Below are positions 33,419 through 62,700 of a DNA stretch of 64,000 nt, one piece after another. How positions within the stretch are numbered: the first letter of the stretch is position 1; every line of letters starts with the position of its first letter. The position numbers and the translations under genes are program-made. Source of the stretch: Campylobacterota bacterium (GTDB taxonomy: Bacteria > Babelota > Babeliae > Babelales > RVW-14); contig JACKCO010000004.1 of assembly GCA_020633995.1 (NCBI GenBank), positions 90,928-154,927 on the forward strand, read 5' to 3'. The notes beneath the pieces were generated by a model. That model saw only the letters and a list, made by a program, of their open reading frames with translations. It had not been told where the DNA came from and ran no database searches.

Positions 33419-34051
33419 GTGGGACAAAAGGTTCATCCATTTGGTTTTAGACTTGGAGTTTTTGAAGATTGGCATGCTCGTTGGTTTGCAAAAGGTAAGT
33501 ATTGTGACGAGCTTAAAGAAGATTTTCGAGTGCGAGAATTTCTTTCTAAGAGATTGAATAATACTGACATTGCAAGGATTGTAATAGAGAAAGCTGTCGA
33601 CAATGTCCGGATTGTTATTTTTACCTCTCGTCCTGGTTATGTGATTGGTAAAAAAGGTCAAGGTGTAGAGCAATTAAAGGCAGACCTGTTTAATTTCTTG
33701 AAAAAAAACGTAGATGTTTCTGTGCAAGAAGTTAGAGTACCTGAACTCAGTGCACTACTCGTTGCAAAGTCTATTGCTGAGCAGATTGGAAAGCGTGTTA
33801 GCTACAAGAGGCTCATGAAAAAATCTGGTTATGCAATTTTGAAAAGTGGTGCAAGAGGTGTAAAAATTTGTATTTCTGGTAGACTTGGTGGCGCTGAAAT
33901 TGCTCGTACGGAATGGTTGAGATTAGGTTCAACACCACTTCATACTTTAAGAGCAAACATTGATTATGCATTTACTGAAGCATATACAACGTATGGAATG
34001 ATTGGCGTTAAAGTTTGGATATGCAAGGGTGAGTACTCTGCCAATCGTTGA
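33419..34051 (+). CDS. rpsC: 30S ribosomal protein S3
   Basis: GQKVHPFGFRLG; GRLGGAEIARTEW. Confidence 0.97.
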   Translation: MGQKVHPFGFRLGVFEDWHARWFAKGKYCDELKEDFRVREFLSKRLNNTDIARIVIEKAVDNVRIVIFTSRPGYVIGKKGQGVEQLKADLFNFLKKNVDVSVQEVRVPELSALLVAKSIAEQIGKRVSYKRLMKKSGYAILKSGARGVKICISGRLGGAEIARTEWLRLGSTPLHTLRANIDYAFTEAYTTYGMIGVKVWICKGEYSANR

Positions 34052-34064
34052 AAGGTTATAAATC

Positions 34065-34511
34065 ATGTTGATGCCAAAAAAAATAAAATACCGCAAGGTA
34101 CAAAGAGGTAGACTAAAAGGGCGTGCTAAAGGCGGCAGGGACCTACTTTTTGGTGATTATGGGCTTGTTGCAGTTGACCCTTCGTGGGTAACAGCTCGTC
34201 AGATTGAGTCTATTCGTGTGGCTGTAAATAGGAAACTAAAGAAAATTGGTGAAATTTTTCTGCGAGTTTTTCCTGATAAACCCATCACCAAAAAACCAGC
34301 TGAAACGCGAATGGGTAAAGGTAAGGGTAGCCCAGAGTTTTGGGTAGCGGCTGTTAAGCGTGGCAAGATGATTGTTGAAATTAAGGGTAGTTTTGACAAA
34401 GAAGTGGCTAAGCAAATTCTGAAAGCTGCATCTTATAAGCTACCGATGAAGACTCGTTTTGTTGCCCGTGATGAGCAGGTAGTACAGCAATCTGAAGCGA
34501 CAACGGCTTAG
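34065..34511 (+). CDS. rplP: 50S ribosomal protein L16
   Basis: MLMPKKIKYRKVQRGR; RMGKGKGSPE.W. Confidence 0.97.
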   Translation: MLMPKKIKYRKVQRGRLKGRAKGGRDLLFGDYGLVAVDPSWVTARQIESIRVAVNRKLKKIGEIFLRVFPDKPITKKPAETRMGKGKGSPEFWVAAVKRGKMIVEIKGSFDKEVAKQILKAASYKLPMKTRFVARDEQVVQQSEATTA

Positions 34512-34524
34512 GGGAAGGTTATTT

Positions 34525-34719
34525 ATGTTAACTAAAAAAGAACTGAAGGCGCTTGACAGCGCGTCACTTAAAAATGAAGTTGCCTCGTTAAGACAGGAGC
34601 TTTTTACTCTGAAGTTGAGTAAAAATACTGGTCAGGTAAAGAACTATTCACAATTTAGAGCACTTCGTGTTCAAGTTGCTCGAGCTTTAACACTACTTAA
34701 GCAGAAAGAAGCTCGCTAA
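34525..34719 (+). CDS. rpmC: 50S ribosomal protein L29
   Basis: 64 aa. LR.ELF.LK pattern; operon position. Confidence 0.93.
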   Translation: MLTKKELKALDSASLKNEVASLRQELFTLKLSKNTGQVKNYSQFRALRVQVARALTLLKQKEAR

Positions 34720-34792
34720 TTTTAAAAAAATCCCTGTGGGGGGTGTTTGTTAAAGGTATAATAAAGAAATATAGGTAAGAAAGAACCTGGCG

Positions 34793-35080
34793 ATGGAGAA
34801 TAATATAAAGCACGACGTTGATCAAGCGCAAACGAGCAAAGGCCTTGTACTTGCCGGTGAAGTTGTTTCTGACAAGATGGATAAAACTGTTGTTGTTAGA
34901 GTTTTAAGCACCTTCACTCATCCACTGTACGGTAAGATTGTACGTCGTTATAAAAAGTACAAAGTCCACGATGAGCAAAATCAAGCTCGAGTTGGGGATA
35001 AGGTGGAAATGGTAAAAACAAAACCATTTTCAAAAACGAAGCATATGAAGCTAGTAAAAATTGTTGAAAACGCTGCTTAG
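34793..35080 (+). CDS. rpsQ: 30S ribosomal protein S17
   Basis: G.VVSDKMDKTVVVRV....HPLYGK...R.KKY.VHDE. Confidence 0.95.
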   Translation: MENNIKHDVDQAQTSKGLVLAGEVVSDKMDKTVVVRVLSTFTHPLYGKIVRRYKKYKVHDEQNQARVGDKVEMVKTKPFSKTKHMKLVKIVENAA

Positions 35081-35094
35081 TGGAGACTTAGAAG

Positions 35095-35463
35095 ATGGTA
35101 CAAGAACAGTCGATGTTAGACGTTGCTGATAATTCAGGTGCAAAGAAGGTACAGGTTATTCGAGTAACCGGAAGCACGAGAAAGCGTTTTGCATATTTAG
35201 GCGACATCGTGAAGGTTACAGTAAAAAAAGCTCTCCCTGGTGGAACAGTTAAAAAAAGCGAAGTTCACAATGCGGTGATTGTTCGAACCAAAAAGGAATT
35301 TCGACGTTCTGATGGAAGCTATATTCGTTTTGATAATAACGCTGCTGTGATTATAGATAAAGATAAGCAACCTATGGGTACTCGTATTTTTGGTCCGATT
35401 GCTCGAGAGCTTAAAAGTATTGGTTATTCAAAAATAGCTTCTCTTGCGCCAGAAGTTTTATAG
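35095..35463 (+). CDS. rplN: 50S ribosomal protein L14
   Basis: [16 protein letters not shown]; 122 aa. Confidence 0.97.
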
Positions 35464-35479
35464 CATTTAGGTAAGTTTT

Positions 35480-46428: not shown

Positions 46429-49400
46429 ATGAGGAACATTCTTCGCTTGTCAACATTTCTATCTGTGCTTTTTATTGTTGGGTTGGGTCAGTCGCTTTTT
46501 TCAAATATAACCTTTGGTAGTCGTGAGTCTGCCATTAAGGTTCAATCGGGTACTACATTTAATATTTCATCTGACAATTTGTGCGTTGACGGTACTATTG
46601 ATGCTGCTAACGATGCAAGTATTACAGGCAAGGAATTTGCTTTCAAAGATGGTCGTTTGCGCAATAAGAATGTTGAACTCTGCATGACCGCACTGTATGA
46701 TCCAACAGGAACAGACATCATAACGCTTCCCGGCAAGGCTCACTGTGACGTAACACCTGGCACCGTGATTCAGGCAATGGTAGTTGAAGGTGTTGATAAT
46801 GAGCTCGAGGGACAGCCTCGTTTTAGTGGGCCGATTACTCTTGCCAACGACAAAACAGAGCTTTCAATCGGTATTCAAAACAAACTGAATAATGATATTG
46901 AGCTTAATGGCGGTAAATTGATTTTAATTGATAACCTTGGCCTTGTTGATGATGTTAAAATCAATGGTCCTGGTATTGTTGACTTAAATCAGCGTCAACT
47001 TTCACTTGGTAGCGTATATACCACACCGTGGGGAGGAGAACTATTTTTTGATAATGCAACTGACCTCGTGCTAACGGGTAACACGGTACTGACAGGGACC
47101 TGGACATTTACAGGTAAAACCGTTCTTAATGGTAACGGCTCAGTGCTTGATATGTCCGGTGGAGGTAAAATTATTGTTAAAGCTGGTGCAACGTTGTGCA
47201 TGAACGACATTCACGTTACTGGTCTTGCAGATGCAGCTGGCAAAGGCATGATTGTATTTGAAGACAAAACAAGTCAGCTTCGTATAGCGAATGCATCGTT
47301 CAAACTTGATGGTGATATGAGCTGGACCACCGGCGGCATGTATGTTGTTGGGCCTGCAACATTGATGCTTGGCAACTATGACTGGACTTTTGATACCATG
47401 GCTTCACTCACCGTAGACGGTGTACCATTGTGGCTTGATACGCTGTGTGCTGATTGCGCAGTTGGGTCAGGTCAATTGTTTGTTAATCTCCCATTGTTTG
47501 CAAATGGCTTATGGCAGCCAGATAATGTTACTGCAAATATTGCGGCCGGATACCTTTCATTAATTGATTGCGCAACAATTAAAGATACCATCAGCAAAGA
47601 GGAAGCCCGCTTTGACCAAAGTCTGTGCGAGTTGCTTAGTGGTTGCTTGACTGACAGTCTTAAGCTCAACTGTGGGATCTGTCTTTGTTCACATGATACC
47701 ATTAGAATTTGTGGGGATGTTGAAATTGACGGTCAAGGTAATGAGCTTTGCTTCCTATGTGGTGCAGACAATGCACAGCTTATTGTTGAAGCAGGTAACA
47801 CGCTCACACTTAAAAATATTGCATTAAACAACATTGGCCAAAATACCCTTGATATTCGCGATGGTGCATTGCTTAACATCGACGAAGATGTTTCATTTTG
47901 CCTGTGCGAAAACGTTACCTTCTCACAAGGTGCTATTCAGGTACTTAACTCGGCGGCTGGTTCAAACATTTTCACTATTAAAGGTGACAAGTGCAAACGA
48001 GTTTTTGATGTACGCCCACTTGTGCCATTGCTTCCATCAGGCGTTGCAAACCAATTGCTTTTCTTGGGCACTAACACCCTCAAGCTTGAAAATGCTGGTA
48101 TTGGTGGCTTTGCATCAATAAGCCATATTAATGGTCCGGTCATTGTTGGTGCCATTGCGCTTTCATGCCAAGCATGCGCATTTATTGATGTCGATACAGG
48201 TATGAACTTCTTTATTGAAGATGGCCGCAACGAAATGATTTTTGAGCAAGATGGTTTGATTATGTCTGGTAACATTTCATTTGGTGACTTCCCAGATAAT
48301 GAATTGTCAATGCGCTTCTTGCTTATTGATCCAATTGATCCAAACAACCCTCGCCGTGTTGGCGTAAAACCGGGTAACCCATTTGTAGAGTTTACTGGTG
48401 ATCCTGGAGTATTTGTGTTCTCACTTGACGGTCGTGCTCATCTGATTTTTGAAGACTTTTCAGTAACGACACGCCTTAGCAATGCAAATGGTATTGTGGT
48501 TGATGACAACTCGCTGCTTACAGCCAAGAAACTTGAAATTCTTGATAATCCAATTAAACAAGCATCTGGATTGTTCAGATTTGAAGCGATTGAAATAGCT
48601 GGTGCAAAAATTGACCCATCATTTGTTCGTAGCCCAGTAAGTGTGAGAAGTGCACTCAGATCAGAAGGTATCAAGTTAACAGCGCTGCACATTGCTCGTC
48701 AAAAAGAAAAAGAGCAGTTCTTAGCTTCACAGGCAGCAGCGATTGCAGCACTTGAACAAAATGGTGGACGTCCAAATAAACCAAACAAGCCAAGCAATAA
48801 TAATAAACCGCAAAAACCAGCGACAGCTAAACCATTAGCACCACGTCAAGATAAGCCAGAAGCGCCGGGCTCTCGTCCAGAGCAGCCTCCACGTCCACCA
48901 CAAAAGCCTGATCGCCCAGAAGCTCCGGGTCGCCCAGATCGTCCAAGTTCATCAGACAATGACCGTCCATCACGACCTACTCAAGTTCAAAACGGTGGAG
49001 GTAGTTCATCAAATGGACGTCGCCGTCGTAGTGAGCGTAGCTTGAATGATACAACTCGCGCAATGGGAATCCCAAGTCAGTGGGCAAGGAAACGTGGAGA
49101 TCTTGAAGATCCAGAGGATTTCTTCGTACCAGAAATATTTGACGAAATTATTGAAGGTAACCAAGGTGGTACTCTTCTTCTTAATCCTGCTGAAAATGAA
49201 CCGCTTAAAGGTGCTCTTGATGTGAGAAATAATGCTCGTATTGAGGAAGCATATACAGATCCCGACCAACCGTTTCATGTAGTTTTGAGTAATGAGTCAG
49301 AGTTAGAGCAAAGTAATTCTGGAGATATTGATCTCGAGCCTACACAGATAATCAGTGTGATCGGTAAACAGAATGTGGTAGAAGTTTGCCGTGACTTCAG

Positions 49401-50559
49401 AGTTAACCAGGGTAACTTGCTTCTCTCTGGTGATGCGGAATGTATTATTCGCTTTGCAAATAACGGAACACATAAACCTCGCTTTATTTTCTCTGCAGGT
49501 ATGACACAAAACATAGGAGAGCAAGGCAAACTGATTTTTGAAGGTGATGGGTATGTTGTTTGCGAGGATGGTGTAACATTCCAGTTCCTTGGACAACCTG
49601 AGATTAACCCTGAAACAGGTAGAGCGCAAACCGAAGCTCGTCCATCTATAATCATCAGAGATGATGCTAAGTTTGTTCCAGCGGCAAAGAACGCCAAAAT
49701 TGCTATTCAAGGTGTGGGTAATGTTAGCGTTGAAGATCGTGCAATGATCAAATTTGATAAGGCAGGTAGCAAACTACGTTTGGGTTCTTCAACCGAAAAA
49801 GTTGATGACGTTGACTCAAACAAGCTCAATGACATTATGTTGAATTTGATTGATGGTGTTGTTTGGGTTGAATCAGATGATTCATCAAATCGAGCATGTA
49901 TTAGCCTTGAGTACGGAACATTTGATATCAATGGTACTGATGGTGGCCGCTTGTTAGTTGGTGACTATGGTACCTTTGCTATAAACGGAGACTGCAACGA
50001 AACGTTGAAACAGGGTCGCTTCAATTCATTTGATCTTGGTTGTGGTGGACAGTTGAATATCCGTCAAAATGGCTTGCTGCTTATTGGTGCCAGCAAAGAA
50101 GATCCTAAGCAAAAACTAACTGGCAAAACCTGCTATGACTTTGAGTTCAGTGGTCAAGTACAAGGTTCAGGTTTAGTTGGTTATCTGCCTGCTCCGTTCT
50201 CAGGTACTCCGGGTAAAGAACAAAGTATTCACAAGGGTGGTTTACTCGGTCGCCTCATTGGTCTTAACGAGATGTTTGTTCGTCGTATAAAAGAAGCAGA
50301 TAAACTTTCAAGTGAAAGTATTGTCAGAAACTTGGTACAAAGTCGTCCAGGCCTGTCTGTCTCAACGGTATTTGTTGATGAAGACGGTGCTGTAATGTTG
50401 AGAACAAAGAATGGTACAACTGTTCCACTTGTTAATCCTGCAAACAATAACCCAATTACATTGGTATCAGACAGTTCAACAACCGGACAAGCAACTGGAA
50501 CGGATGGCTTTAATGCGGTGACGATTGACATTAATGGCAATATTAAAGTTAATGACTAA
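46429..50559 (+). CDS. giant secreted protein P1 (two NGxG signature modules, Pro-rich linker, distinct C-terminal half)
   Basis: AGGAAGGAG SD. Signal peptide MRNILRLSTFLSVLFIVGLGQSLFS. N-terminal ~330 aa are homologous to P3 and P6 (LTGTWTFTGKTVLNGNGSVLDMSGGG...). Confidence 0.85.
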   Translation: MRNILRLSTFLSVLFIVGLGQSLFSNITFGSRESAIKVQSGTTFNISSDNLCVDGTIDAANDASITGKEFAFKDGRLRNKNVELCMTALYDPTGTDIITLPGKAHCDVTPGTVIQAMVVEGVDNELEGQPRFSGPITLANDKTELSIGIQNKLNNDIELNGGKLILIDNLGLVDDVKINGPGIVDLNQRQLSLGSVYTTPWGGELFFDNATDLVLTGNTVLTGTWTFTGKTVLNGNGSVLDMSGGGKIIVKAGATLCMNDIHVTGLADAAGKGMIVFEDKTSQLRIANASFKLDGDMSWTTGGMYVVGPATLMLGNYDWTFDTMASLTVDGVPLWLDTLCADCAVGSGQLFVNLPLFANGLWQPDNVTANIAAGYLSLIDCATIKDTISKEEARFDQSLCELLSGCLTDSLKLNCGICLCSHDTIRICGDVEIDGQGNELCFLCGADNAQLIVEAGNTLTLKNIALNNIGQNTLDIRDGALLNIDEDVSFCLCENVTFSQGAIQVLNSAAGSNIFTIKGDKCKRVFDVRPLVPLLPSGVANQLLFLGTNTLKLENAGIGGFASISHINGPVIVGAIALSCQACAFIDVDTGMNFFIEDGRNEMIFEQDGLIMSGNISFGDFPDNELSMRFLLIDPIDPNNPRRVGVKPGNPFVEFTGDPGVFVFSLDGRAHLIFEDFSVTTRLSNANGIVVDDNSLLTAKKLEILDNPIKQASGLFRFEAIEIAGAKIDPSFVRSPVSVRSALRSEGIKLTALHIARQKEKEQFLASQAAAIAALEQNGGRPNKPNKPSNNNKPQKPATAKPLAPRQDKPEAPGSRPEQPPRPPQKPDRPEAPGRPDRPSSSDNDRPSRPTQVQNGGGSSSNGRRRRSERSLNDTTRAMGIPSQWARKRGDLEDPEDFFVPEIFDEIIEGNQGGTLLLNPAENEPLKGALDVRNNARIEEAYTDPDQPFHVVLSNESELEQSNSGDIDLEPTQIISVIGKQNVVEVCRDFRVNQGNLLLSGDAECIIRFANNGTHKPRFIFSAGMTQNIGEQGKLIFEGDGYVVCEDGVTFQFLGQPEINPETGRAQTEARPSIIIRDDAKFVPAAKNAKIAIQGVGNVSVEDRAMIKFDKAGSKLRLGSSTEKVDDVDSNKLNDIMLNLIDGVVWVESDDSSNRACISLEYGTFDINGTDGGRLLVGDYGTFAINGDCNETLKQGRFNSFDLGCGGQLNIRQNGLLLIGASKEDPKQKLTGKTCYDFEFSGQVQGSGLVGYLPAPFSGTPGKEQSIHKGGLLGRLIGLNEMFVRRIKEADKLSSESIVRNLVQSRPGLSVSTVFVDEDGAVMLRTKNGTTVPLVNPANNNPITLVSDSSTTGQATGTDGFNAVTIDINGNIKVND

Positions 50560-50586
50560 GCTTTTAAAAAATAAGGAGAGAGTACG

Positions 50587-52497
50587 ATGAACGCATTTAT
50601 TTTAGGAATGCTTGCCTCATTGCTCTTGTGTTGCAATGTGGAGCAGGCAAATGCCAACGCTCATGATGCCATGAGCGTTGCTAAAGAGCACGAAAAGGCT
50701 TTGGTAAAGCAGAAAAAAAATGCACAACGCGAAATGGAAAAAGCAAAAAAGACGACTGAAAAAGCACGCAAAAAGGAAATGAAGCGTGCGATGGAAGACA
50801 AGAAAAAACGCGTTGAAATGAAAAAGGCTGAGGACAAGAAAATTCGCAACAAGATGAAAAAGAAAGCCAAAAAAGATCGTGCTGCCAAAGAAGCTGATAA
50901 AAATCGTGTAGAGTACGAACGCCTTCGTGAAATGGATGGGCTTAAACAGGAAGAGAAAAAACAGCGTGCTCTGCAGGGACGTGATGAACGCGACATGCTT
51001 ATGAGCAATTGGGAAACTCATCGTGATAAAGTTGTCCTGCAAGAAAAAGAAAAAGGTAAGTATGCCTATCTTTATAAATCACCAGCATGGCCTATGCATG
51101 CACTCTTCTGGGAAAATAAAGCGTTTTTAAATGTGCAGTTTGACTACACCTACGCAACAGATGCTTATGGCTCTTGCCGTGGCGGTAGTGGGCATGATGT
51201 CTCAACACTTGAGTTTGGTCAGTGCCCAATCAAGCTCAAAGACATTTCTCTTGCCAGCAGGCTGCTTAAAGATGGGAAAGTTAATCCAGAGGCATGTAAC
51301 TTGGTTGTTGCAAACTTTCTGAAAGCGTTTGCGGATGAAACTTTGCGTTTTAATGGTAAGCAAGAGTCGATGAGTGTGTCGTTTGACTTTGCTCGTTACC
51401 TGCGTGGTCGTGATGTGGCCGTGGGTGTGCATGTGCCAATTGTGTACAAAAAGAATCGTCTTGAAATTGGTTTGCCAGTCAGTGGTCGTGAGCTTGAGTT
51501 TAATAGTTTCTTGGGATTGGGCAATGATCCGACAGCAACCTTAAATAACATTCCAATAGTTACTATACAGTCTCAATCAGGCCAGGCGATAGTTGTTCCT
51601 GCGAATACTGCTCTCAAACAACTTGTTAATCCAAATGTCTTGCAAGCTTTTAACGATTACATGATCGAAAAAATCTTGAAAGGCAAAGGCATTGAACACG
51701 TTGGTGGTTCATCTGGTGGTATTGGAGACATTGAGCTGTTTGGTAACATCCAACTCAGACCATGGTGGGCCGATAAAGTGATTTTTGGCTTACGTGTAGC
51801 AGTACCGACAGGCAAAGAAGCCGATCTGCACAGACTCTGGTCACCAGAGCTTGGCTGCGGTGGATTTACCACGGTTGGTGCCTACATGTCGGCACTGGTT
51901 AGCTATAAAAAGTTCCTGAATCCACATGTATTGATTGAAGGACGCTTTAGCAACTCAGCAAACGTTAAACGCCGTGTACCTCGCCGTGTTGTAACGCCTG
52001 ACAGTGCTGTCGCAACCGAAGATCTTGGCCATGACTTGATTTCTCTTGGTGGTTTTGTCAAATACAAAACAGATCCTCTTAGTGATGCTAACAAGTTTGA
52101 TGAATTTGATGCGACAGTTAATGGCTTTGGTGACAAGATTAACAAAATTCGCATGACCAAGGGTGCAGAATTTGAGTTCCGCCTCGGTAACATGATGGAA
52201 GCGTTCTTGCTTCGTCGTGGCTTTATGGACGTGTACTACAACTTTAGAGCCAAAGCTCAAGATGAAGTACGTCGTTGCCTTGAGCAAGTTGACACAGCTT
52301 GCTGTCAGCGCGTTGATGAACTTAACCTGTGCTATGTTTGGGATAACACACAGCGTCTTGAGCATAAGCTTGGTTTTGAGTATGCCTATCAGTTTGATCT
52401 GGACGCACGTCTGCGTGTCGGCTTAGAGTATACCTTTGCTGGTAAGAGCGTTCCAAAACTAGTGTTATTCACAACAGCGTTTAACTACTCATTTTAA
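50587..52497 (+). CDS. predicted outer-membrane beta-barrel protein P2 with Lys/Glu-rich N-terminal region
   Basis: AAGGAGAG SD. Signal peptide MNAFILGMLASLLLCCNVEQANA. ~130 aa of K/E/R-rich sequence. C-terminal ~450 aa have alternating polarity and end ...TTAFNYSF (terminal Phe). Confidence 0.7.
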   Translation: MNAFILGMLASLLLCCNVEQANANAHDAMSVAKEHEKALVKQKKNAQREMEKAKKTTEKARKKEMKRAMEDKKKRVEMKKAEDKKIRNKMKKKAKKDRAAKEADKNRVEYERLREMDGLKQEEKKQRALQGRDERDMLMSNWETHRDKVVLQEKEKGKYAYLYKSPAWPMHALFWENKAFLNVQFDYTYATDAYGSCRGGSGHDVSTLEFGQCPIKLKDISLASRLLKDGKVNPEACNLVVANFLKAFADETLRFNGKQESMSVSFDFARYLRGRDVAVGVHVPIVYKKNRLEIGLPVSGRELEFNSFLGLGNDPTATLNNIPIVTIQSQSGQAIVVPANTALKQLVNPNVLQAFNDYMIEKILKGKGIEHVGGSSGGIGDIELFGNIQLRPWWADKVIFGLRVAVPTGKEADLHRLWSPELGCGGFTTVGAYMSALVSYKKFLNPHVLIEGRFSNSANVKRRVPRRVVTPDSAVATEDLGHDLISLGGFVKYKTDPLSDANKFDEFDATVNGFGDKINKIRMTKGAEFEFRLGNMMEAFLLRRGFMDVYYNFRAKAQDEVRRCLEQVDTACCQRVDELNLCYVWDNTQRLEHKLGFEYAYQFDLDARLRVGLEYTFAGKSVPKLVLFTTAFNYSF

Positions 52498-52511
52498 GTA
52501 ATAAAAACATG

Positions 52512-52541
52512 CCGGAAGCGTTTGTATAAAGGCGCTTCCGG
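52512..52541 (+). terminator. 9-bp GC-rich hairpin after P2 (no T-run; weak terminator or RNA processing/stability element)
   Basis: ccggaagcg-12 nt-cgcttccgg. Confidence 0.3.
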
Positions 52542-52568
52542 TCCACCGTCAGTGCTGGAGAGTTTGTA

Positions 52569-54605
52569 ATGTTGAAAAAGCGTTGTTTCTTCTTGGCTTT
52601 ATGTTGTGTAGCCGCAGTGGGTTCTTTGCATGCTCGAACGTTGCACAGAGGTCGCGAGTCTGGCTATAACGTTGAGTCAACTTCAACCATGCGCATTGAA
52701 AATCGATTACGTGTTAATAGCGGAAGGCTAAGAGTTGGGGAGAAGGCAACGCTTGAAGGTGCAACAGGTGCGATTGTTGAATTTACCAATGGACGTTTTG
52801 TTGAAGAAAATCAAGTGGATGTTGAGCTGACGGGTACGCTTGATATTAATGCTAATGAGATTACTGTTGATGGGTCTAACTTCAACCCAGCTTCGGGACG
52901 GCCTCGTCAACGCATTCGCTTGAGTGGAAGTGCAAAGCTTGAGGGCCTTTCTGGGCGGTTTGATGAGTCTGTTAGTTTAGCAGATCCTGCCTCAGAACTT
53001 GATCTTAACCTTGCAACACCGATCAACACCAACATTAATCTTGCTGGAGGTAAAATTAATCTAACGGGCGATGCGCGCCTTTCTGATGGTCGTATGCCTC
53101 GAGGCGATGGTACCATTGATGCGCGTGGTAACAGACTGTCTACCGGGGGTCGAAATTTGACTCTAGGAGATAATCTTACGTTGAGAAATATGTCTGATTG
53201 GGACATTAACAGCAAGATTACCGTGACGGGTGAATTGACTTTTACCGGGAATGCAAAAATTAACGGTAATGGTAATGTGCTTGATCTTTCTCAGGGGGGA
53301 ACGATTAGAATCAGGGCTACAACAACGCTTGCTATGTGTAACATTACGCTTAAAGGCCTTGGTCTTGGAAAACTTATTTTTGAAGATCCAACATCACAAC
53401 TCTGTTTGTCTGACGCTCATGTGATGTTGAATCGTGACGTGACCTTTACAACCGGCGGTTTCTATATTGAAGGTCCAACAAAAATTATCACGAAAGATAA
53501 AATTTTGCGCTTTGATAGTGCAAGTTCTCTGACGGTTGATTGTCTAACGCTTGAATATGATACCGTTTCATTCACCGATAAACAAAATATTCGACCGTTT
53601 AATGCAGCGGCTGATCTAAATCAGTTGCATCTAACATTGCTTAATAATGCAACCATTCGCAGGGTAGCTTCTACCTCGGGCCCTGTAGTCATTGTTAATA
53701 ACTTTATTTTAGAGGGACTGCTTGAATTGCACCCAGATTTCAAGATTTTCTTCTGTGAAACGGCAACGCTTGACGGGGCAACGCATAATGTGTTCTTCTC
53801 GTGTGCTAAAGAGCCGCTTATTGTTGTTGATCCGGGCAAGATAGCGACGTTTGAAAATATTGCTTTCAAAGCATTTGCTCCACACCATATTAATGCGGGT
53901 GCTAAATTTATCTTTGCAGATAACACTAAAATTGAACTTGGCCAAAATAGTGAACTTGTTACGACATGGACCTTTACCGGGGCATGTGTGCTGAATGGTC
54001 GCGGTTTCTGCCTTGACATGAGTAGCACTGCTGCTGCGCTTGTGTTGCAGCAAGATAGAACTAACTTGCTGCTCGAAGATATCATTATTAAAGGTCTTTC
54101 TGCCAATAAAATTCGTTGTCTTGATAATAGCAGTAGTGTTTCCTTTAAAAATGTTACGTGGATTCAAGATGATTCAACAACATTCTCATTGGGTACGTTT
54201 GCAGTTATTAAGGATTTGGAACTTGTAGGTTCTTCAACGTTTGAATATTCAACGGTTGTTGGAAGTACCATTTTCGCACATGGAAAATTGAAACTCGATT
54301 GTGGTATGTCATTTAGCTATGCACCAAAACGTGCACATCGTGACTTAATTTACATGGAAAACAGTAGCGCTGTGCTTGAAATGAAAGGTGCGACGCTTGC
54401 ATCGACGGTGACTGGTCTACGCTTGACACGAGGAACCCTCATGCTTGATCACAAAAACAATACGATCAATGATGGTGCTGCGAGTGCTTCACAGTCAATA
54501 GCTTTTGGTAATGGGTCAGCAAGTGATGATTTGACTGTTAAAGTAATGCCGGGTGCAAATATTAATGTGCTTACTGGACGCCTTGTTTATGATAATACGA
54601 TTTAA
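52569..54605 (+). CDS. secreted modular protein P3 (module A + module B + shared C-terminal motif)
   Basis: Signal peptide MLKKRCFFLALCCVAAVGSLHA. N-half is homologous to P1/P6 (VTGELTFTGNAKINGNGNVLDLSQGG...). C-half is homologous to the P5 C-terminus (FSYAPKRAHRDLIYM...LRLTRGTLMLD...IAFGNG). Confidence 0.85.
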   Translation: MLKKRCFFLALCCVAAVGSLHARTLHRGRESGYNVESTSTMRIENRLRVNSGRLRVGEKATLEGATGAIVEFTNGRFVEENQVDVELTGTLDINANEITVDGSNFNPASGRPRQRIRLSGSAKLEGLSGRFDESVSLADPASELDLNLATPINTNINLAGGKINLTGDARLSDGRMPRGDGTIDARGNRLSTGGRNLTLGDNLTLRNMSDWDINSKITVTGELTFTGNAKINGNGNVLDLSQGGTIRIRATTTLAMCNITLKGLGLGKLIFEDPTSQLCLSDAHVMLNRDVTFTTGGFYIEGPTKIITKDKILRFDSASSLTVDCLTLEYDTVSFTDKQNIRPFNAAADLNQLHLTLLNNATIRRVASTSGPVVIVNNFILEGLLELHPDFKIFFCETATLDGATHNVFFSCAKEPLIVVDPGKIATFENIAFKAFAPHHINAGAKFIFADNTKIELGQNSELVTTWTFTGACVLNGRGFCLDMSSTAAALVLQQDRTNLLLEDIIIKGLSANKIRCLDNSSSVSFKNVTWIQDDSTTFSLGTFAVIKDLELVGSSTFEYSTVVGSTIFAHGKLKLDCGMSFSYAPKRAHRDLIYMENSSAVLEMKGATLASTVTGLRLTRGTLMLDHKNNTINDGAASASQSIAFGNGSASDDLTVKVMPGANINVLTGRLVYDNTI

Positions 54606-54658
54606 AGAGAGAGAAAAATTAGTTAACGTTTATTTTGCTAGGTAAAAAAGGAGAGAGA

Positions 54659-55678
54659 ATGAGACGTTTTGGCTGCTCAAATAGTCTAAAAAAATGCTTA
54701 ATCATGGTACTTATTTTGTTGCAAGGCTCAGCGCTATTTTGTGCTGCAAGCAAAAAAAGAGTATGCCGTGATGGAGAGACCATTGAGGGTTTTGTTCCTT
54801 TGAATGGGGTTTCTTTGCCATCAAAATCAGATGTCTATTTTAATGTTCCTCTTCCAGTACAAGGAATTGTAGAGTTTGGTGCCGATTGTACTATGCATCT
54901 CATGAGTGACCTACATACTGCATCACACATCAATTTTGCTATTGGTCAGAATTGCTCGGACTGTGCTTATATAAATGGGCAAGGATATACATTATTTCTT
55001 GGTGGTGATATAAACGTCCCAGCCTCACGTTCATTGCACATAGCTGGTGATTTAACGATTGATGGTAACGGATATACTATTTGTTTTGAGGACTTACTCT
55101 CGGAAATTTATGTTCATGAGCATTGCACACTTACTTTACGCAACCTTATTTTAAGGGGTTGGGATGGCAATTGCCAGCTTGCAGGACAAGGCCGTGTAGT
55201 ATTGCAGGATTGTGAAATTGACTTGTCACCTGAAATGGTAGCTGAATATGAGGGTGATGGAGAAGTTGAAGTACGTAGCTTGGTGTCAGTACAAGGTGGC
55301 GGCAAGTTAGTCTTTGGTGGTAGAAGTTCTTTAAAAATAGATTCATTTTCTACTTTGTGGATGGATTCGGATACAACACTTCATTGGAAGAATCAAACTC
55401 GAACTGGGCTTGTAATGGTTGATGAAACATCCCGTATTTTCTTAAACGGTGGAAATATTCATGCAGATGCTAAAGGAGAGAACAAAGGGCTTCAACTGAC
55501 TAAAGGAACATTGCTTTTAGATAATAGATGTATGATTCAAAATGACGGTAATACATCTGCTACAAGAAGTTTTCAACTTGGTGATGGAAGAAATACAGCT
55601 AATGATGTTGATGTAAAAGTTCTTGCTGGGGCGCTTGTTGAGGTTGATGGCTACATGGACTTTAATCCGGCTCGGTAG
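54659..55678 (+). CDS. secreted short paralogue P4 (one signature module + shared C-terminal motif)
   Basis: AGGAGAG SD before the ATG at 54659. Signal peptide ...CLIMVLILLQGSALFCAAS. TIDGNGYTICF...LTLRNLILRGW; C-terminus LQLTKGTLLLDNR...FQLGDG...DVDVKVLAGA. Confidence 0.8.
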   Translation: MRRFGCSNSLKKCLIMVLILLQGSALFCAASKKRVCRDGETIEGFVPLNGVSLPSKSDVYFNVPLPVQGIVEFGADCTMHLMSDLHTASHINFAIGQNCSDCAYINGQGYTLFLGGDINVPASRSLHIAGDLTIDGNGYTICFEDLLSEIYVHEHCTLTLRNLILRGWDGNCQLAGQGRVVLQDCEIDLSPEMVAEYEGDGEVEVRSLVSVQGGGKLVFGGRSSLKIDSFSTLWMDSDTTLHWKNQTRTGLVMVDETSRIFLNGGNIHADAKGENKGLQLTKGTLLLDNRCMIQNDGNTSATRSFQLGDGRNTANDVDVKVLAGALVEVDGYMDFNPAR

Positions 55679-55719
55679 TGTTTTGCAAGGTATATAAACG
55701 TTTTAAAGGAGAGTAGAAA

Positions 55720-58700
55720 ATGAGATGTTACAAGAAGATTGTGTGCTTAATGCTTTTGGCAGCCAGTGGCATTGAGCATCATCTTGCGGGGGCAAAGCTA
55801 GATTTTGCAAGTCGTAGCTCGTCCATATTGCTAGGTAGTAATGGAAAGCAGTCTGTTTTGCGTGTTGGCGATCAGAATAAAGTACGTGGTTGGGAGCAAG
55901 AATCAATTGTACGAGCATCTGATCGAGGCCTTACTATTAGCAGAAGTCCTGGAGGGGCTCAAGTTTACGATCAAAATAGTGCACCAGCCTCAGTGAATGA
56001 TGAGTGGCACGTGCTAAGAGACTGGCAAATGGATCGTGCCTTTACTACAACCGATCCAGAACTTGTTTTACAAAACAGTGCTGCAATAGCTGCGCTTGCG
56101 CAGTGTTGCAAAAATAATAGTAATGCAATTGTAAAAAATGACGCGGATATTGCAAGTAACGCTTCTGACATCATTACCAATGCGGTTAATATCGCATCAA
56201 ATGCAACAAGTATTGCAAGTAACGCAATGGACATATCTGATAATCTTAAAGCAATTAGAAACAACAGTAATGCGCTTCTTGCATGTTGCAGAAATAATAG
56301 TAATGCAATTTTGGCTATTAATGCTGATCTGTCACAGGGTGTAGAGGACAACAGTAATGCCATTATTAAGCTTGAACAAGATGTAACCAACAATAGCAAT
56401 GCTTTGATTGCAAAGTGTGACGAAATTGAAGCGAATAGCAATGCGATTTTGGTTAACGTTCAAAATATCACGAATAACAGTAATGTTATCGTAGTTAATG
56501 TTCAAAATATAACAAATAATAGCAACACTATTGTTAAAAATTCTCAAAATATAATAAATAACAGTAATGCTATTGTTGTCAAATGTGAAGAGATCGAAGC
56601 AAATAGCAACGCGATTATTAAGCATGATCAAGATATCACAAATAATAGCAATGCCATTATTGCGGTAGTCGAGTGTTGCGAAGACAATAGCGAAGCGATT
56701 ATTAAGCTTGCACAAGATGTTGAAAATAATAGCAACGCGATCTTGAAGAATGTTCAGGATATCACCAACAACAGTAACACGCTGTTGGCATGTTGCCGTG
56801 ATAATAGCAATGCGATCATCAAGTTGACGAATGATGTCGAAAATAACAGCAACGCGATCTTGAAGAATGTTCAGGATATCACCAACAACAGTAACACACT
56901 GTTGGCATGCTGTCGTGATAATAGCAATGCGATTATCAAGTTGACGGATGATGTTGAAAATAACAGCAACGCGATCTTGAAGAATGTTCAGGATATCACC
57001 AATAACAGTAATACCTTGTTGGCATGTTGCCGCGATAACAGCAATGCGATTATCAAGTTGACGGATGATGTTGAGAACAACAGCAACGCGATCTTGAAGA
57101 ATGTTCAGGATATCACCAACAACAGCAACACATTGTTGGCATGCTGCCGTGATAACAGCAACGCGATTATCAAGTTGACACAAGATGTTGAAAACAACAG
57201 CAATGCGATATTGAAGAACGTTGAGGATATTAAAAATAACAGTAACACGCTGTTGGCATGCTGCCGTGATAACAGCAATGCGATTATCAAGTTGACACAA
57301 GATGTTGAAAACAACAGCAATGCGATATTGAAGAACGTTGAGGATATTAAAAATAACAGTAACACCTTGTTGGCTTGCTGCCGTGACAACAGCAATGCGA
57401 TTATCAAGCTGACACAAGATGTTGAAAATAACAGCAACGCGATCTTGAAGAATGTTCAAGATATCACCAACAACAGTAACACTTTGTTGGCATGCTGCCG
57501 TGATAACAGTAATGCGATTATCAAGTTGACACAGGATGTTGAAAACAACAGCAATGCGATCTTGAAGAATGTTCAAGATATCACCAACAACAGTAACACT
57601 TTGTTGGCATGCTGCCGTGATAACAGCAACGCAATTATCAAGCTGACGAATGATGTTGAAAACAACAGCAACGCGATCTTGAAGAACGTTCAGGATATCA
57701 CCAACAACAGCAACACATTGTTGGCATGCTGCCGTGATAACAGCAACGCAATTATTAAACATGACCAAGATATCACCAACAATAGTAATGCGATCATTGC
57801 ATTGGTAGAGTGTTGTGAAGATAATAGCGAAGCGATTCTCAAGCTTGTTGAAGATGTTAAGAATAACAGTAACACCTTGTTGGCTTGCTGCCGAGATAAT
57901 AGCAACGCGATTATCAAACATGATCAAGACATAACAAACAACAGTAATGCGATTGTTAAGAACGTTCAGGATATCACCAACAACAGTAATACCTTGTTGG
58001 CTTGTTGCCGCGATAACAGTAATGCAATTGTTAAGTTGACGCAAGATGTTGAAAATAACAGCAACGCGATCCTGAAGAAGTGTCAAGATATCGAAAATAA
58101 CAGCAATGCAATATTGAAGAATGTTGAAGATATTAGACACAACAGTGATGCAATTGTAAGTATTATGATTAACAATGAGTTGATCATACATAACAGTAAC
58201 GCAATTGTTGTACTTGCCGAGTGTTGTGAGGACAACAGCAATGCAATCATTAAACATGAGCAAGACATTAAGAACAACAGTAACACCTTGTTGGCCTGCT
58301 GCCGTAACAACAGTAATGCGATTATTAAGCACGAACAGGATATAAAAAACAACAGTAATGCAATTATTGCAGTGGTTGAGTGTTGCAAAGACAATAGTGA
58401 GGCGATCCTGAAATTGGTACAAGATGTTACAAACAACAGTAACACGTTGTTGGCCTGCTGCCGCGATAACAGCAATGCGATTATCAAATTGACGCAAGAT
58501 GTTGAAAACAACAGCAACGCGATTCTGAAAAACGTTGAAGATATCAAGAATAACAGCAATACGCTGTTGGCATGTTGCCGAGACAATAGCAATGCGATCA
58601 TCAGACACGATAAACAGCTAAATACCATTGATCATGGCCCAGAAAAAGTGTTTATCAAGCACAACACGCATCAAATCAACTTTGATCTGCATATTTCCTG

Positions 58701-59655
58701 TACACACTGCATGGTGATTGAACCAGAATGTCCAAAATCACCAAGTGATTTTGCAGCTGACGGGCAAAAGGCAGTCACTCGAAACGGTTACGCTTGTAAC
58801 ACGACTGTTACTATTAATGGTAATGGCCAGGCAATTAACCTTGCAAGCAAATGTGATGACATTATTCAGGTAGCAGATGGTGTACAAGTTATTTTTGAAA
58901 ACGTTGTGTTCAGACACTACCATGACCGTGTTTTTCAGCTTGGCGAAGGATCTGAAGTTGTCTTTGGTAACTGCACACGTCTTGAACTTGATGAAATGCA
59001 GAGCATGGAGATGGATTGGAAGTTTGACGGAGATACACAAATCCGTGGTTATGACAATATCTTGATGCTGGGTGAGTACAACATAAGAGTATTGCCAAGT
59101 GCAGAGCTGACGATGCACAACTTGTGGTTGTCAGGCATGCAGGATAACAATGTACGTTGCGAACATGACGATTCAAGCATTATTTACAAAGATTGCGACT
59201 TGTGGTTATCAGCAGACTACAGCTTTACAAAAGGCTCAATGCTGTTTGTCCAAGATGTAGTTTTACGCGGAACACATTGGTTTAACTACATGACAGACTT
59301 GACATCAACCATTAGCGGATGCTCAAGCTTGACCTTTGATAAGGGCGTTGTGTTTAACTATGAACCGCCTATTGCGAACAGAGACCTGATTGCAATGCAA
59401 GACATTACAGCAGTCTTAAAATGGGATGGCTGTGATATTTACTCAACACCAACTGGCTGGCGCCTAACCGTGGGTACGTTGTGTGTTGATCATATCAACA
59501 GACTCTTTGGTAGCGGTTCAAGCTTGTCACAAGCCATAGCGTTTGGTAATTGTGTCAATCAAGTAGTACTTGACGATCTTAATGTACAAGTGTTGCCTGG
59601 TGGATCAATTGATCTTCAATCAGGTGTGCTTGACTACGCAAACTTAGATACATAA
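55720..59655 (+). CDS. giant repeat protein P5: signal peptide, ~840 aa of NNSNAI/LLACCRD 39-aa repeats (predicted coiled-coil fibre), C-terminal module B + shared C-terminal motif
   Basis: AAGGAGAG SD. Signal peptide MRCYKKIVCLMLLAASGIEHHLAGA. The non-repeat C-terminal ~340 aa are homologous to the P3 C-half, which fixes strand and frame. Confidence 0.9.
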   Translation: MRCYKKIVCLMLLAASGIEHHLAGAKLDFASRSSSILLGSNGKQSVLRVGDQNKVRGWEQESIVRASDRGLTISRSPGGAQVYDQNSAPASVNDEWHVLRDWQMDRAFTTTDPELVLQNSAAIAALAQCCKNNSNAIVKNDADIASNASDIITNAVNIASNATSIASNAMDISDNLKAIRNNSNALLACCRNNSNAILAINADLSQGVEDNSNAIIKLEQDVTNNSNALIAKCDEIEANSNAILVNVQNITNNSNVIVVNVQNITNNSNTIVKNSQNIINNSNAIVVKCEEIEANSNAIIKHDQDITNNSNAIIAVVECCEDNSEAIIKLAQDVENNSNAILKNVQDITNNSNTLLACCRDNSNAIIKLTNDVENNSNAILKNVQDITNNSNTLLACCRDNSNAIIKLTDDVENNSNAILKNVQDITNNSNTLLACCRDNSNAIIKLTDDVENNSNAILKNVQDITNNSNTLLACCRDNSNAIIKLTQDVENNSNAILKNVEDIKNNSNTLLACCRDNSNAIIKLTQDVENNSNAILKNVEDIKNNSNTLLACCRDNSNAIIKLTQDVENNSNAILKNVQDITNNSNTLLACCRDNSNAIIKLTQDVENNSNAILKNVQDITNNSNTLLACCRDNSNAIIKLTNDVENNSNAILKNVQDITNNSNTLLACCRDNSNAIIKHDQDITNNSNAIIALVECCEDNSEAILKLVEDVKNNSNTLLACCRDNSNAIIKHDQDITNNSNAIVKNVQDITNNSNTLLACCRDNSNAIVKLTQDVENNSNAILKKCQDIENNSNAILKNVEDIRHNSDAIVSIMINNELIIHNSNAIVVLAECCEDNSNAIIKHEQDIKNNSNTLLACCRNNSNAIIKHEQDIKNNSNAIIAVVECCKDNSEAILKLVQDVTNNSNTLLACCRDNSNAIIKLTQDVENNSNAILKNVEDIKNNSNTLLACCRDNSNAIIRHDKQLNTIDHGPEKVFIKHNTHQINFDLHISCTHCMVIEPECPKSPSDFAADGQKAVTRNGYACNTTVTINGNGQAINLASKCDDIIQVADGVQVIFENVVFRHYHDRVFQLGEGSEVVFGNCTRLELDEMQSMEMDWKFDGDTQIRGYDNILMLGEYNIRVLPSAELTMHNLWLSGMQDNNVRCEHDDSSIIYKDCDLWLSADYSFTKGSMLFVQDVVLRGTHWFNYMTDLTSTISGCSSLTFDKGVVFNYEPPIANRDLIAMQDITAVLKWDGCDIYSTPTGWRLTVGTLCVDHINRLFGSGSSLSQAIAFGNCVNQVVLDDLNVQVLPGGSIDLQSGVLDYANLDT
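56074..58608 (+). repeat. in-frame degenerate 13/39-aa repeat region of P5
   Basis: NNSNA[IL] recurs about every 13 codons. 15 LLACCR and 4 ECC[EK]D Cys-Cys doublets counted in the translation. Confidence 0.95.
56716..57768 (+). repeat. 9 consecutive near-identical 117-bp (39-aa) tandem units
   Basis: Unit DVENNSNAILKNV[QE]DI[TK]NNSNTLLACCRDNSNAIIKLT[NDQ]. The period was checked from nucleotide offsets (56716, 56833, 56950 ...). Confidence 0.95.
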
Positions 59656-59665
59656 ACGCAAAAGC

Positions 59666-59697
59666 CTGAAGAGGAGGGAATCATCCCTCCTCTTCAG
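59666..59697 (+). terminator. perfect 14-bp hairpin between P5 and P6 (no T-run)
   Basis: ctgaagaggaggga-atca-tccctcctcttcag. Confidence 0.4.
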
Positions 59698-59773
59698 AAT
59701 ATGAGATGGTGTAAGAGCTTCGTTACGAGCGTTACGTAGAGGTGTCTACGCATTTTTTAAAAAAAGAGGAAGG

Positions 59774-62700
59774 ATGGGTGTGACTATACCTGCAAAACGT
59801 GCAATAAAAGTTTTATTGGCGATAGCTTGTACACTGTCAAGTAGTCTCTTTGCAGCAGTTGAATTTGGGAGCTTAGCGTCTGCTATTAATGTTAGACGCA
59901 GCGCACAGCTGCAGTCTTTTGCGAATCCATTTTTGGTGCGAGAGGGGAGTGTCAATGCACTTGAGAGTGGCGTAGTTTCAGGTCCCAAACTTATGTTTGA
60001 TGGAGGTATTTTCGCCGATAATAACAGTAGTGCAGAATTTACTGGTGATCTGGCGTTCACTCAAAATAATGTTATTGAAGTTTTTGACTCAGCATCAAAT
60101 GTAACTATTGTTGATCAAACAACTATTGATAGAAACATTATTTTAAATGACGGGACGTTGCGTCTTGATAATAAATTAAGTCTTGCCGATGGTGTTACTA
60201 TTGGTGCTTCTGGTCGTGTGCAGCTTAATGGTCATAGGCTAGAATTTGGAGGAAGAGATTTAGGTTTGACGAGCTCAATCGTCTGGGAAAATGCAGATGA
60301 TTTGGTCATGCATAGCAATATTGCTTTGACGGGGTTGTGGACGTTTACCGGCCCAGCCCACATTATCGGAAATGGCAATTGCCTTGACCTGACCAGTGGT
60401 GGGACGCTGTGGATACGCAGTAATACCGATGTATGGTTGAGCGATATTAAAATTCGCGGCTTGGGAACGGGGTTTATTGTTTTTGAAAATAAAACGTCTC
60501 GTTTGTATCTTTCGCAGGTTGAAGTAGAACTTGATTCATCGTTTACGGTAACAACCGGTGGTATTTACGCAAAAGGTCCTGCTAATATCGTAACAAAAAA
60601 TCACTTCTTAGCGTTTGATCAGAGTGGATCGTTAACCGTTGATGGGATACGCCTTACTTATGACACGTTGACGTTTGATGACCGTTCAAATATAGTGCCG
60701 CTCGACGCTGGGCAAGATCCAGGTGGGGTCAACTTAGCACTTGTAAATAATGGCGTTATCACAAACAACAATGTGGCACAGGCAAGTCAGCTTGCTATTC
60801 AAAACAGTAATGCAATTCTTGTTAAATGCCAAGAGATTGAAAATAACAGTAATGCAATTCTCGCGATTAGCTCTGGCGGGGTCCAGCTTGCAATAGAAAA
60901 CAGTAATGCGATTGTTGCAAAGTGCCAGGACATAGAAAATAACAGCAATGCAATTCTGAAGAACGTTCAGAATATAACGAATAACAGCAACACGATTTTG
61001 GTTAATGTTCAAAATATAACTAACAATAGCAATACGTTGATCAAGAAATGTCAGGACATTGAAAACAACAGCAATGCAATTTTAAAGAATGTTCAAGATA
61101 TAACGAATAACAGTAACACCTTGTTGGCGTGTTGCCGAGACAACAGTAACGCAATTATCAAATTAACGAATGATGTTGAAAATAACAGCAATGCGATTTT
61201 GAAGAATGTTCAGGACATAACAAATAACAGCAACACGCTTCTTGCATGCTGCCGAGACAATAGCAACGCGATTATCAAGCATGACCAAGATATAACAAAT
61301 AATAGTAATGCGATTATTGCACTTGATGTGGCAAGTGGTGGTGCTGCCGAACTTGCAGAGCAGAATAGCAATGCCATCCTTGCAAAATGTCTTGAAATAG
61401 AGGCCAACAGCAACGCAATCTTGAAGAACGTTCAAGACATAACAAACAATAGTAATACGTTGTTAGCCTGTTGCCGAGATAACAGCAACGCAATTATCAA
61501 GTTGACGCAGGATGTTGAAAACAACAGCAACGCGATTTTGAAGAATGTTCAGGACATAACAAATAACAGCAACACGCTTCTTGCATGCTGTCGTGACAAC
61601 AGTAATGCTATTCTTGCCCTGAGTGCTGGTCTTACTGATGGGGTGACGAATAATAGTAATGCGATTATTAAGCTTGTTCAGGATGTGACGAACAATAGTA
61701 ATACGCTGTTGGCGTGTTGCCGAGACAACAGTAACGCAATTATCAAATTAACGAATGATGTTGAAAATAACAGCAATGCGATTTTGAAGAATGTTCAGGA
61801 CATAACGAACAATAGCAATACGTTGCTTGCCTGCTGCCGAGACAACAGCAACGCAATTATCAAACATGACCAAGATATAACAAACAACAGTAATGCTATT
61901 GTTGCACTTGATCAAGGCCTTTCTCAGGCAATCGAAAACAACAGTAATGCGATTATTAAGCTTGTTCAGGATGTGACGAACAACAGTAACACGCTGTTGG
62001 CATGTTGCCGTGATAATAGCAATGCAATTATCAAATTAACGAATGATGTTGAAAATAACAGCAATGCGATTTTGAAGAATGTTCAGGACATAACGAACAA
62101 TAGCAATACGTTGCTTGCCTGCTGCCGAGACAACAGCAACGCAATTATCAAATTAACGAATGATGTTGAAAACAACAGCAATGCGATTTTGAAGAATGTT
62201 CAAGACATAACGAACAATAGCAATGCATTGCTTGCTTGTTGCCGCAACAATAGCAATGCGATTATCAAGATTGTTCAAGATGTTAAAAACAACAGCAATG
62301 GAATATTGGCAAATGAAGCTGACATTATGAAGAACGCAGCAGACATTTTGACCAACGCCGTCAACATCGCAACGAATGCAACAAACATAGCTGCGAATGC
62401 CGTTGATATAACCAATAATGCTATGGATATTGCTTCCAATGTTGACAACATCAGGCACAATAGCGATGCAATTATTGGTAAATGTCAGGATATTGAAAAT
62501 AATAGCAATGCAATATTGGCAATAGGTGATTGTTGCATAAACAACAGTCAGCGTATTACTAATAACAGCAATGCAATTATCAAAAAATGTGAAGAGATTA
62601 AACAGAATAGTAACGCAATATTAGCCAATGAGGCTGATATTATGAAGAATTCAGCCGATATTTTGACCAACGCAGTCAATATTGCAACGAATGCAACAAA

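Follow-up and report, generated by a model that had tools for sequence, protein, structure and literature searches.

Beta-helix adhesins of the type V secretion systems (pertactin, Ag43, TibA and Fap2, and the TpsA proteins HxuA and EtpA) combine a Sec signal peptide with a passenger-like beta-helix body, and in tpsB-tpsA pairs a dedicated barrel gene adjoins its cargo. The chlamydial Pmp proteins form a large paralogue set of secreted beta-helix proteins, encoded in tandem arrays by an obligate intracellular bacterium with a small genome. Here we analysed a locus that recalls both systems. It lies in a 64,000-nucleotide stretch (in the following 'the window') of a Dependentiae genome deposited as Campylobacterota bacterium (assembly GCA_020633995.1, contig JACKCO010000004.1, positions 90,928 to 154,927, forward strand). 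The region comprises six open reading frames (ORFs) on the same (+) strand, P1 to P6, five of which encode copies of a recurrent motif of about 35 amino acids (aa), [ND]G-x-G-x-x-[LI]-x-[LFM]...L-x-[LM]-x-[ND]-[IL]-x-[LIV]-x-G-[LW].

The Dependentiae (TM6) are a widespread phylum. The members known so far live inside protists as obligate parasites, and only a handful of them have been cultured. To our knowledge, machinery for host attachment or surface display has not been described in this phylum. Nor did we find a description of the motif-bearing proteins in the main genome papers of the phylum or in the open-text literature. We regard them as an undescribed family that belongs with the beta-helix proteins on the surface of intracellular bacteria and whose partner is non-canonical. 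With a probability of roughly 0.6, they are Sec-exported, non-enzymatic beta-helix proteins of the cell surface that act as adhesins or in host contact and work with the product of P2, a putative outer-membrane beta-barrel, as their partner.

Motif copies and module architecture

The original prediction reported seven instances of the motif in P1, P3, P4, P5 and P6. All seven peptides were recovered letter for letter in the window, 0-4 nt from where they had been placed (Table 1). A strict regular expression of the motif gave seven matches among the 2610 ORFs of at least 80 aa in the genome, every one in a gene of the family, and 50 residue-shuffled versions of the same ORF set gave none. This confirmed the motif as real and specific to the paralogue family. 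Chance or compositional recurrence without common ancestry, which might be suspected for a motif so short and degenerate, was ruled out by these shuffles (0 versus 7 matches), by profile-profile E-values down to 3e-19 and by thousands of homologues (see below), and we give it practically no weight. As a family marker, the motif is specific but insensitive when used as a literal pattern: its strict form matches 5 of about 22 paralogues. The family is definable by profile, not by the literal motif.

While the seven instances were exact, they do not occupy one repeated position. Instead, they fall into three homologous units, which we call A-core (P1a, P3a and P6), B1 (P1b and P5) and B2 (P3b and P4), and further copies within the window had been overlooked. 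Profile comparison revealed module A and module B to be homologous (hhalign 98.6%, E 6e-16 over 142 columns). At the level of units, B2 matched A-core (99.2%, E 2.8e-19), B1 matched B2 with the motif in register (93.4%, E 2.5e-7), and B1 matched A-core at 85%, again with the motif in register. For the region of P3 upstream of A-core (aa 141-214), similarity to the motif units was not detected by profile comparison. The motif is the best-conserved part of a larger unit, about 55-85 aa long, and not a free-standing 35-aa repeat. Module A contains one such unit and module B two, which makes at most three per two-module protein. Judged by their sequences, the two modules go back to an old duplication.

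The assignment of P1b to B1 follows from the family profile, in which P1 aa 15-504 aligned to profile positions 9-475 and P1b became equivalent to about aa 402 of P3. The core model alone, which is unable to separate B1 from B2, puts P1b on the NGNG column. P6 continues past the end of the window and there contains a further B1 copy, identical in letters to that of P5, plus a B2 core. The module-A copies had been described as always preceded by LTG.WTFTG and followed by FE[DN].TS.L...TTGG.Y..GP...LTVD. These flanks were found in P1 and P6 and, outside the window, in one further paralogue, but not without exception, as P3 reads VTGELTFTG, which differs at two residues.

Family members come in several forms: one-module proteins of about 350 aa (for example P4), two-module proteins of about 700 aa (for example P3), multi-module giants, and proteins in which modules cap long repeat stalks (P5 and P6).

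Predicted fold of the module

We modelled P3 with AlphaFold2 from a nine-sequence alignment and P4 from an independent alignment of eighteen sequences. The P3 model (mean predicted local distance difference test, pLDDT, 82.4; predicted template modelling score, pTM, 0.50, two domains) contained 51% strand and almost no helix. The P4 model reached a pLDDT of 87.1 and a pTM of 0.84 and comprised 33 short strands over roughly 300 residues. The motif spans a whole coil and the opening strand of the coil that follows. Its course is alike in the two models: it leads from the end of a strand through the G-x-G turn and two short strands into a long strand of 11-12 residues with the pattern L-x-L-x-[ND]-[IV]-x-[IL]-x-G, and the pattern L-x-L-x-[ND]-[IV] of this long strand reappears 24 residues on. 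In the models, long strands spaced in this way have the look of successive parallel beta-helix coils with Asn (or Asp) at a corner, and each unit would correspond to about three coils of about 24 residues. A right-handed parallel beta-helix is recognized by all-beta coils of some 22-27 residues, each turn having three short strands, and such coils were likewise present in the predicted models. Both the family and the parallel beta-helix (beta-solenoid) predicted as the fold class of its motif-bearing module are well supported.

The motif had originally been interpreted as a repeating structural unit, possibly the rungs of a beta-solenoid head. The all-beta models and the rung-like recurrence at 24 residues agree with the rungs, while the stand-alone 35-aa repeat gave way to the core of a larger, duplicated unit. 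A 'head' at the end of a fibre suits P5 and P6 only; the majority of members stand alone, with one or two modules each.

The P3 and P4 models were searched against the PDB with Foldseek, and the P4 model also against BFVD. In both databases the leading neighbours were almost all beta-helix or beta-solenoid proteins. Among them were adhesins and passenger domains (HxuA, TibA, Ag43, pertactin, Fap2, EtpA, SRRP, PfbA, VacA p55 and Hbp) as well as enzymes and phage proteins (polygalacturonases, PL6 and fucoidan lyases, and tailspikes). The type V adhesins were the top structural neighbours, none of them significant, and a close structural relative of the module was not among the Foldseek matches.

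Comparison with described families and secretion systems

In Pfam and NCBIfam, nothing scored above cut-off for P1 to P6 or for nine two-module members, and the family profile gave no match at E<=10 among the PDB sequences. The original prediction had named a clean assignment of the module to a known Pfam or InterPro family as the outcome that would count against it; no such assignment emerged from Pfam, NCBIfam or the PDB sequences.

The one recurrent match, a marginal one, was to PF20585 (Pectate_lyase_5), a putative pectate lyase-like adhesive domain of Gram-positive surface proteins, for example WxL proteins. A published domain figure places this domain in cell-surface proteins (PMC13522541). 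PF20585 weakly matched 9 of the 18 one-module members (E<=1) at the motif region, and a single paralogue outside the window (contig 4, 159810-160922) reached the gathering cut-off (24.4 versus 24.3 bits). A six-frame search of the genome gave six PF20585 matches, all inside the gene cluster of the family; five coincide with the motif region of profiled family genes. Within the window, PF20585 scored 16.0 bits on P4 (aa 122-156; 13.9 bits in the six-frame search, window 55004-55105) and, in six frames, 15.5 bits at window 58666-58911, overlapping the motif copy of P5; the window proteins thus score below the cut-off. The sixth six-frame match (contig 4, 159075-159212) lies between two listed paralogues, in a frame of about 374 aa that the family profiles did not report and that may be one more very diverged family member.

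Like the family, PF20585 combines a predicted beta-helix with a cell-surface setting. However, the family occurs in diderm Dependentiae instead of Firmicutes and has no WxL or LPXTG anchor, and the match spans about 40-100 of the roughly 280 module residues. These similarities suggest a distant relationship and not clean membership, and lend weak but consistent support to the beta-helix reading.

With type V secretion the family shares Sec signal peptides and a passenger-like beta-helix body, and its P2-type genes recall the barrel genes of tpsB-tpsA pairs; in addition, two members gave faint Fil_haemagg matches. The autotransporter beta-domain PF03797 was absent from P1 to P6 and from the whole genome (control genomes were positive), and ShlB/TpsB (PF03865) was not found in the genome. 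The TPS domain PF05860 gave no match in the genome or in the Pfam scans of the proteins, but the control genomes were silent as well, so that this is not evidence of absence. We rejected a type Va autotransporter for lack of the C-terminal 12-strand beta-domain (PF03797) and a type Vb TpsA/TpsB system because PF03865 is missing from the genome and Omp85 and POTRA are missing from P2 homologues.

The chlamydial Pmp proteins resemble the family in paralogue number, tandem arrangement and lifestyle of the host bacterium. Still, the genome contained no Chlam_PMP repeat (PF02415), and P1 to P6 contained no GGA[ILV] motif and no C-terminal autotransporter barrel; identity with Pmp was rejected on the missing PF02415 and GGA[ILV]. 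A trimeric autotransporter adhesin was rejected too, as Pfam revealed no YadA, Hep_Hag or anchor family in P5 or P6, both of which end in module B. Phage tailspikes and depolymerases of the pectate lyase fold represent the same fold class among the weak neighbours, with no significant structural or sequence match. Unlike phage tailspikes, the family genes encode signal peptides and stand in chromosomal tandem arrays conserved across the phylum, and no phage genes were seen among the neighbouring ORFs inspected.

Family size and taxonomic range

Profile searches of the genome detected 22 ORFs that resemble the family, and the core of about 150 aa in 27 copies. They are arranged in two tandem arrays, one on contig 4 (about 137-171 kb, including the window locus) and one on contig 6 (about 62-75 kb), which together account for 3.2% of the genome (1.46 Mb). 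Paralogues are 20-40% identical, and 21 of the 22 have a signal-peptide-like hydrophobic N-terminus.

The true size of the family became visible only with an exhaustive profile search, which yielded 2478 cluster representatives at E<=1e-3 (1640 at E<=1e-30), with proteins of up to 4562 aa and up to 16 matched stretches. In a word-index search, P3 retrieved five foreign matches and P4 retrieved itself alone. The largest single proteins (3366-4562 aa) showed 7-16 module matches, and one related genome of 1.5 Mb (G262, identical to G150) had 52 matching stretches.

Within the phylum, the family was detected in 93 of 261 genomes. Its distribution follows clades: it was found in 34/34 genomes of the GTDB family of the window and in 7/7, 6/6 and 11/12 genomes of three others, versus 0/41, 0/14 and 0/10 elsewhere. 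When one genome of each prokaryotic species was scanned with a pattern, 30 loci were confirmed, and no title confidently named another phylum. They gave Babeliales, Dependentiae, TM6 or an unclassified 'bacterium' as the source, and within a single assembly series 'uncultured Pseudomonadota' or 'uncultured Alphaproteobacteria'. All named relatives are metagenome-assembled Babeliales, Dependentiae or TM6 genomes, and those titled 'Ca. Babeliales' and 'TM6 UASB124' belong to the window's own GTDB family. So far, the family is restricted to Dependentiae (TM6, order Babeliales), with its absence outside the phylum judged from this one pattern scan alone.

By identical match places, four of the genomes labelled Pseudomonadota (among loci L021, L023, L028, L031, L035 and others) are GTDB genomes of the window's own family or order; for locus L033, titled 'uncultured Alphaproteobacteria', the same comparison gave no counterpart. 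The labels under which these genomes were deposited look wrong.

Paralogue number and distribution bear on the idea that the proteins are structural parts of the envelope (a protein coat, an S-layer-like cover or an outer-membrane stabiliser) instead of host-binding adhesins. Signal peptides, the many paralogues and a conserved outer-membrane partner would fit such parts. One cultured member of the Dependentiae has also been reported to lack genes for lipopolysaccharide biosynthesis (Deeg et al. 2019, PMC6561590), which makes a protein-rich surface plausible. But about two thirds of the phylum genomes, including whole families, are without these proteins, which is unexpected for a core envelope part, and paralogue identities of 20-40% are unlike a single lattice-forming protein. 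We consider an envelope role rather unlikely.

The putative barrel partner P2

P2 had no family match in Pfam or the PDB. Its alignments to both gave only low-complexity matches to the Lys/Glu-rich part and faint matches of porin type. Homologues of P2 were present at 13 of the 30 related loci. In many genomes the putative barrel gene lies directly upstream of a two-module gene, as P2 does before P3; examples are genome G151 (contig 3, 31800-33350 followed by 33433-35478) and genome G134 (contig 2, 92077-93636 followed by 93712-95766). The barrel tends to occur where the family does: across the 261 phylum genomes, 77 had both family and barrel, 16 the family only, 20 the barrel only (10 of these being weak partial matches) and 148 neither, counts that are inflated by shared ancestry, as related genomes are not independent.

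This arrangement raises the possibility that P2-type barrels and the beta-helix proteins constitute an unrecognised two-component display or secretion system specific to Dependentiae, an analogue of type Vb built from unrelated parts, in which N-terminal (NFGSR.S) or C-terminal segments would serve as recognition signal. We hold this idea tentatively and would not bet on it.

Two observations concern the make-up of such pairs. In two distant relatives (L040, 9793-11001; L049, 9135-10340), the P2-type gene is immediately preceded by a gene for a separate, secreted protein of about 400 aa that is rich in Lys and Glu, and P2 of the window itself has a Lys/Glu-rich N-terminal stretch of about 140 aa. 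The Lys/Glu-rich protein and the barrel may represent fusion and split forms of one functional pair, although the similarity is of low complexity and homology is unproven. Furthermore, a second pair of barrel and cargo exists in the same genome outside the window (contig 4, 536665-541755), where a 535-aa paralogue of P2, whose six-frame match spans one TGA, adjoins a 969-aa protein with NNSNAI repeats and one motif copy (NGQGAWIMF...LENVNLFRI).

The neighbourhood of a membrane barrel also matters for the notion that the proteins act on host components as soluble effectors, which would be set free in the host vacuole or cytoplasm, perhaps by way of outer-membrane vesicles. Signal peptides are compatible with release, and secreted ORFans and vesicle release have been described for Chromulinavorax (PMC6561590). 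However, the very long repeat stalks of P5 and P6, together with the conserved barrel neighbour, suggest display at the cell surface, and a Pfam scan of the window proteins detected no eukaryote-like domain. We therefore regard release as soluble effectors as unlikely.

Proposed function

According to the adhesin or host-contact reading, the family proteins would be exported by Sec, and the P2-type barrel would help them to cross, or to anchor at, the outer membrane. Displayed at the surface, in P5 and P6 on long repeat stalks, the modules would act as adhesins or host-contact proteins, and the many diverged paralogues would provide variety in binding or antigenicity.

Conservation was assessed across 50 two-module homologues (27-42% identical to P3). 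Positions conserved in at least 80% of them were mostly Gly or hydrophobic, and the polar ones were S31, N159, N234, N236, D239, T308, T322, D324, D337, N340, T453, C517 and N634. Not a single His, Lys, Arg or Glu was conserved at this level. Since conserved polar positions are few and none is His, Lys, Arg or Glu, the modules resemble a scaffold more than an enzyme.

This result has to be set against the possibility that the modules are secreted carbohydrate-active enzymes of the pectin lyase fold (lyases, glycosidases or epimerases) that digest host or prey glycans. Many structural neighbours are indeed polygalacturonases, PL6 or fucoidan lyases or depolymerase tailspikes, the weak Pfam link leads to a pectate lyase-like family, and three Asp are conserved in module A. 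But again, besides the lack of conserved His, Lys, Arg or Glu, modules A and B have no acid cluster in common, module B has lost the D of NGNG..LD, and no enzyme family scores in Pfam or NCBIfam. At least 20 diverged tandem paralogues in a 1.46 Mb genome also suit surface variation better than catalysis. Taken together, an enzymatic role appears quite improbable.

Several points nevertheless weigh against non-enzymatic adhesins working with P2. Function is something that we infer here, as are surface location, binding and the P2-dependent step. The three conserved Asp of module A (D239, D324 and D337) might make up a metal or catalytic site. The fold class, its handedness and the geometry of the coils derive from AlphaFold2 and from the identity of weak neighbours, as Foldseek gave no significant match (best E 0.03 for P3 and 0.09 for P4 in the PDB, and 0.005 for P4 in BFVD; TM <=0.40). 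Sequence periodicity was weak, with autocorrelations of 0.1-0.2 at about 21 and about 48-50 residues (hydrophobicity and strand); the solenoid appears irregular, and periodicity was not used as evidence for the fold. P2 had no detectable POTRA, Omp85 or autotransporter domain, ten of its homologues had no Omp85 or POTRA match, and its putative barrel nature is read from features of its sequence. To this adds the inflation of the co-occurrence counts.

The family is a concrete candidate for how Dependentiae meet their hosts, because it occupies about 3% of the genome, counts its diverged relatives in thousands, is covered by no Pfam model and comes with a conserved, undescribed membrane partner. 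Its clade-wise presence (34/34 versus 0/41) could track differences in host range or lifestyle. In addition, a profile of the module would improve the annotation of many 'hypothetical' giant genes in metagenomes.

Gene layout and coordinates

The coordinates of the six genes and of the motif copies are given in Table 1. In P1, the family profile covers aa 15-504, and the core domain matches aa 208-349 and 427-528. The public gene call of P4 is 339 aa long and fits a start at 54659. As an ORF of the whole genome, P6 spans contig 4, 150701-156379, with family profile matches at both ends.

Table 1. Genes and motif-bearing units of the P1-P6 locus (window coordinates)
Feature	Position in protein	Window coordinates	Strand	Description
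P1		46411..50559	+	1382 aa; signal-peptide-like N-terminus, module A, B1-like unit, Pro-rich spacer, unrelated C-terminal half
P2		50587..52497	+	636 aa; signal peptide, Lys/Glu-rich stretch, putative outer-membrane beta-barrel, C-terminal ...FNYSF
P3		52569..54605	+	678 aa; archetypal two-module protein with signal peptide, N-terminal region, module A, low-confidence linker and module B
P4		54635..55678	+	347 aa; single-module protein, family profile at aa 133-337
P5		55720..59655	+	1311 aa; signal peptide, long NNSNAI/LLACCRD repeat stalk, C-terminal module B
P6		59774..64000, past window end	+	1892 aa when complete; signal peptide, module A, repeat stalk, C-terminal module B (outside the window)
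Motif copy P1a	aa 240	47128..47226	+	A-core unit; exact peptide, within core match aa 208-349
Motif copy P1b	aa 440	47728..47835	+	B1 unit in module-B-like region; exact peptide and family profile
Motif copy P3a	aa 232	53262..53360	+	A-core unit; exact peptide
P3 B1 unit	aa 402-436	53772..53876	+	DGATHNVFF...FENIAFKAF; diverged copy missed originally, in register with B2 (hhalign)
Motif copy P3b	aa 476	53994..54098	+	B2 unit; exact peptide
Motif copy P4	aa 143	55061..55162	+	B2 unit; exact peptide, overlaps weak PF20585 match
Motif copy P5	aa 1033	58816..58920	+	B1 unit, not the equivalent of P3b; upstream of core match aa 1077-1228
P5 B2 unit	aa 1109-1140	59044..59139	+	RGYDNILML...LWLSGM; degenerate copy missed originally, within core match aa 1077-1228
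Motif copy P6	aa 199	60368..60463	+	A-core unit; exact peptide

Most of the larger members carry a second short motif, [IV]-N-F-G-S-[RK]-x-S-x-[IL], directly behind the signal peptide. In the window it belongs to the starts of P1 (46411-46530), P3 (52569-52680), P5 (55720-55830) and P6 (59774-59880), and examples are NITFGSRESAI in P1, AVEFGSLASAI in P6 and INFGSR.S in relatives. This post-signal motif could be a processing or recognition signal.

On the minus strand, a 758-aa ORF (window 56332-58608) runs antisense to the repeat array of P5. It is most likely an artefact of stop-free repetitive sequence and not a gene.

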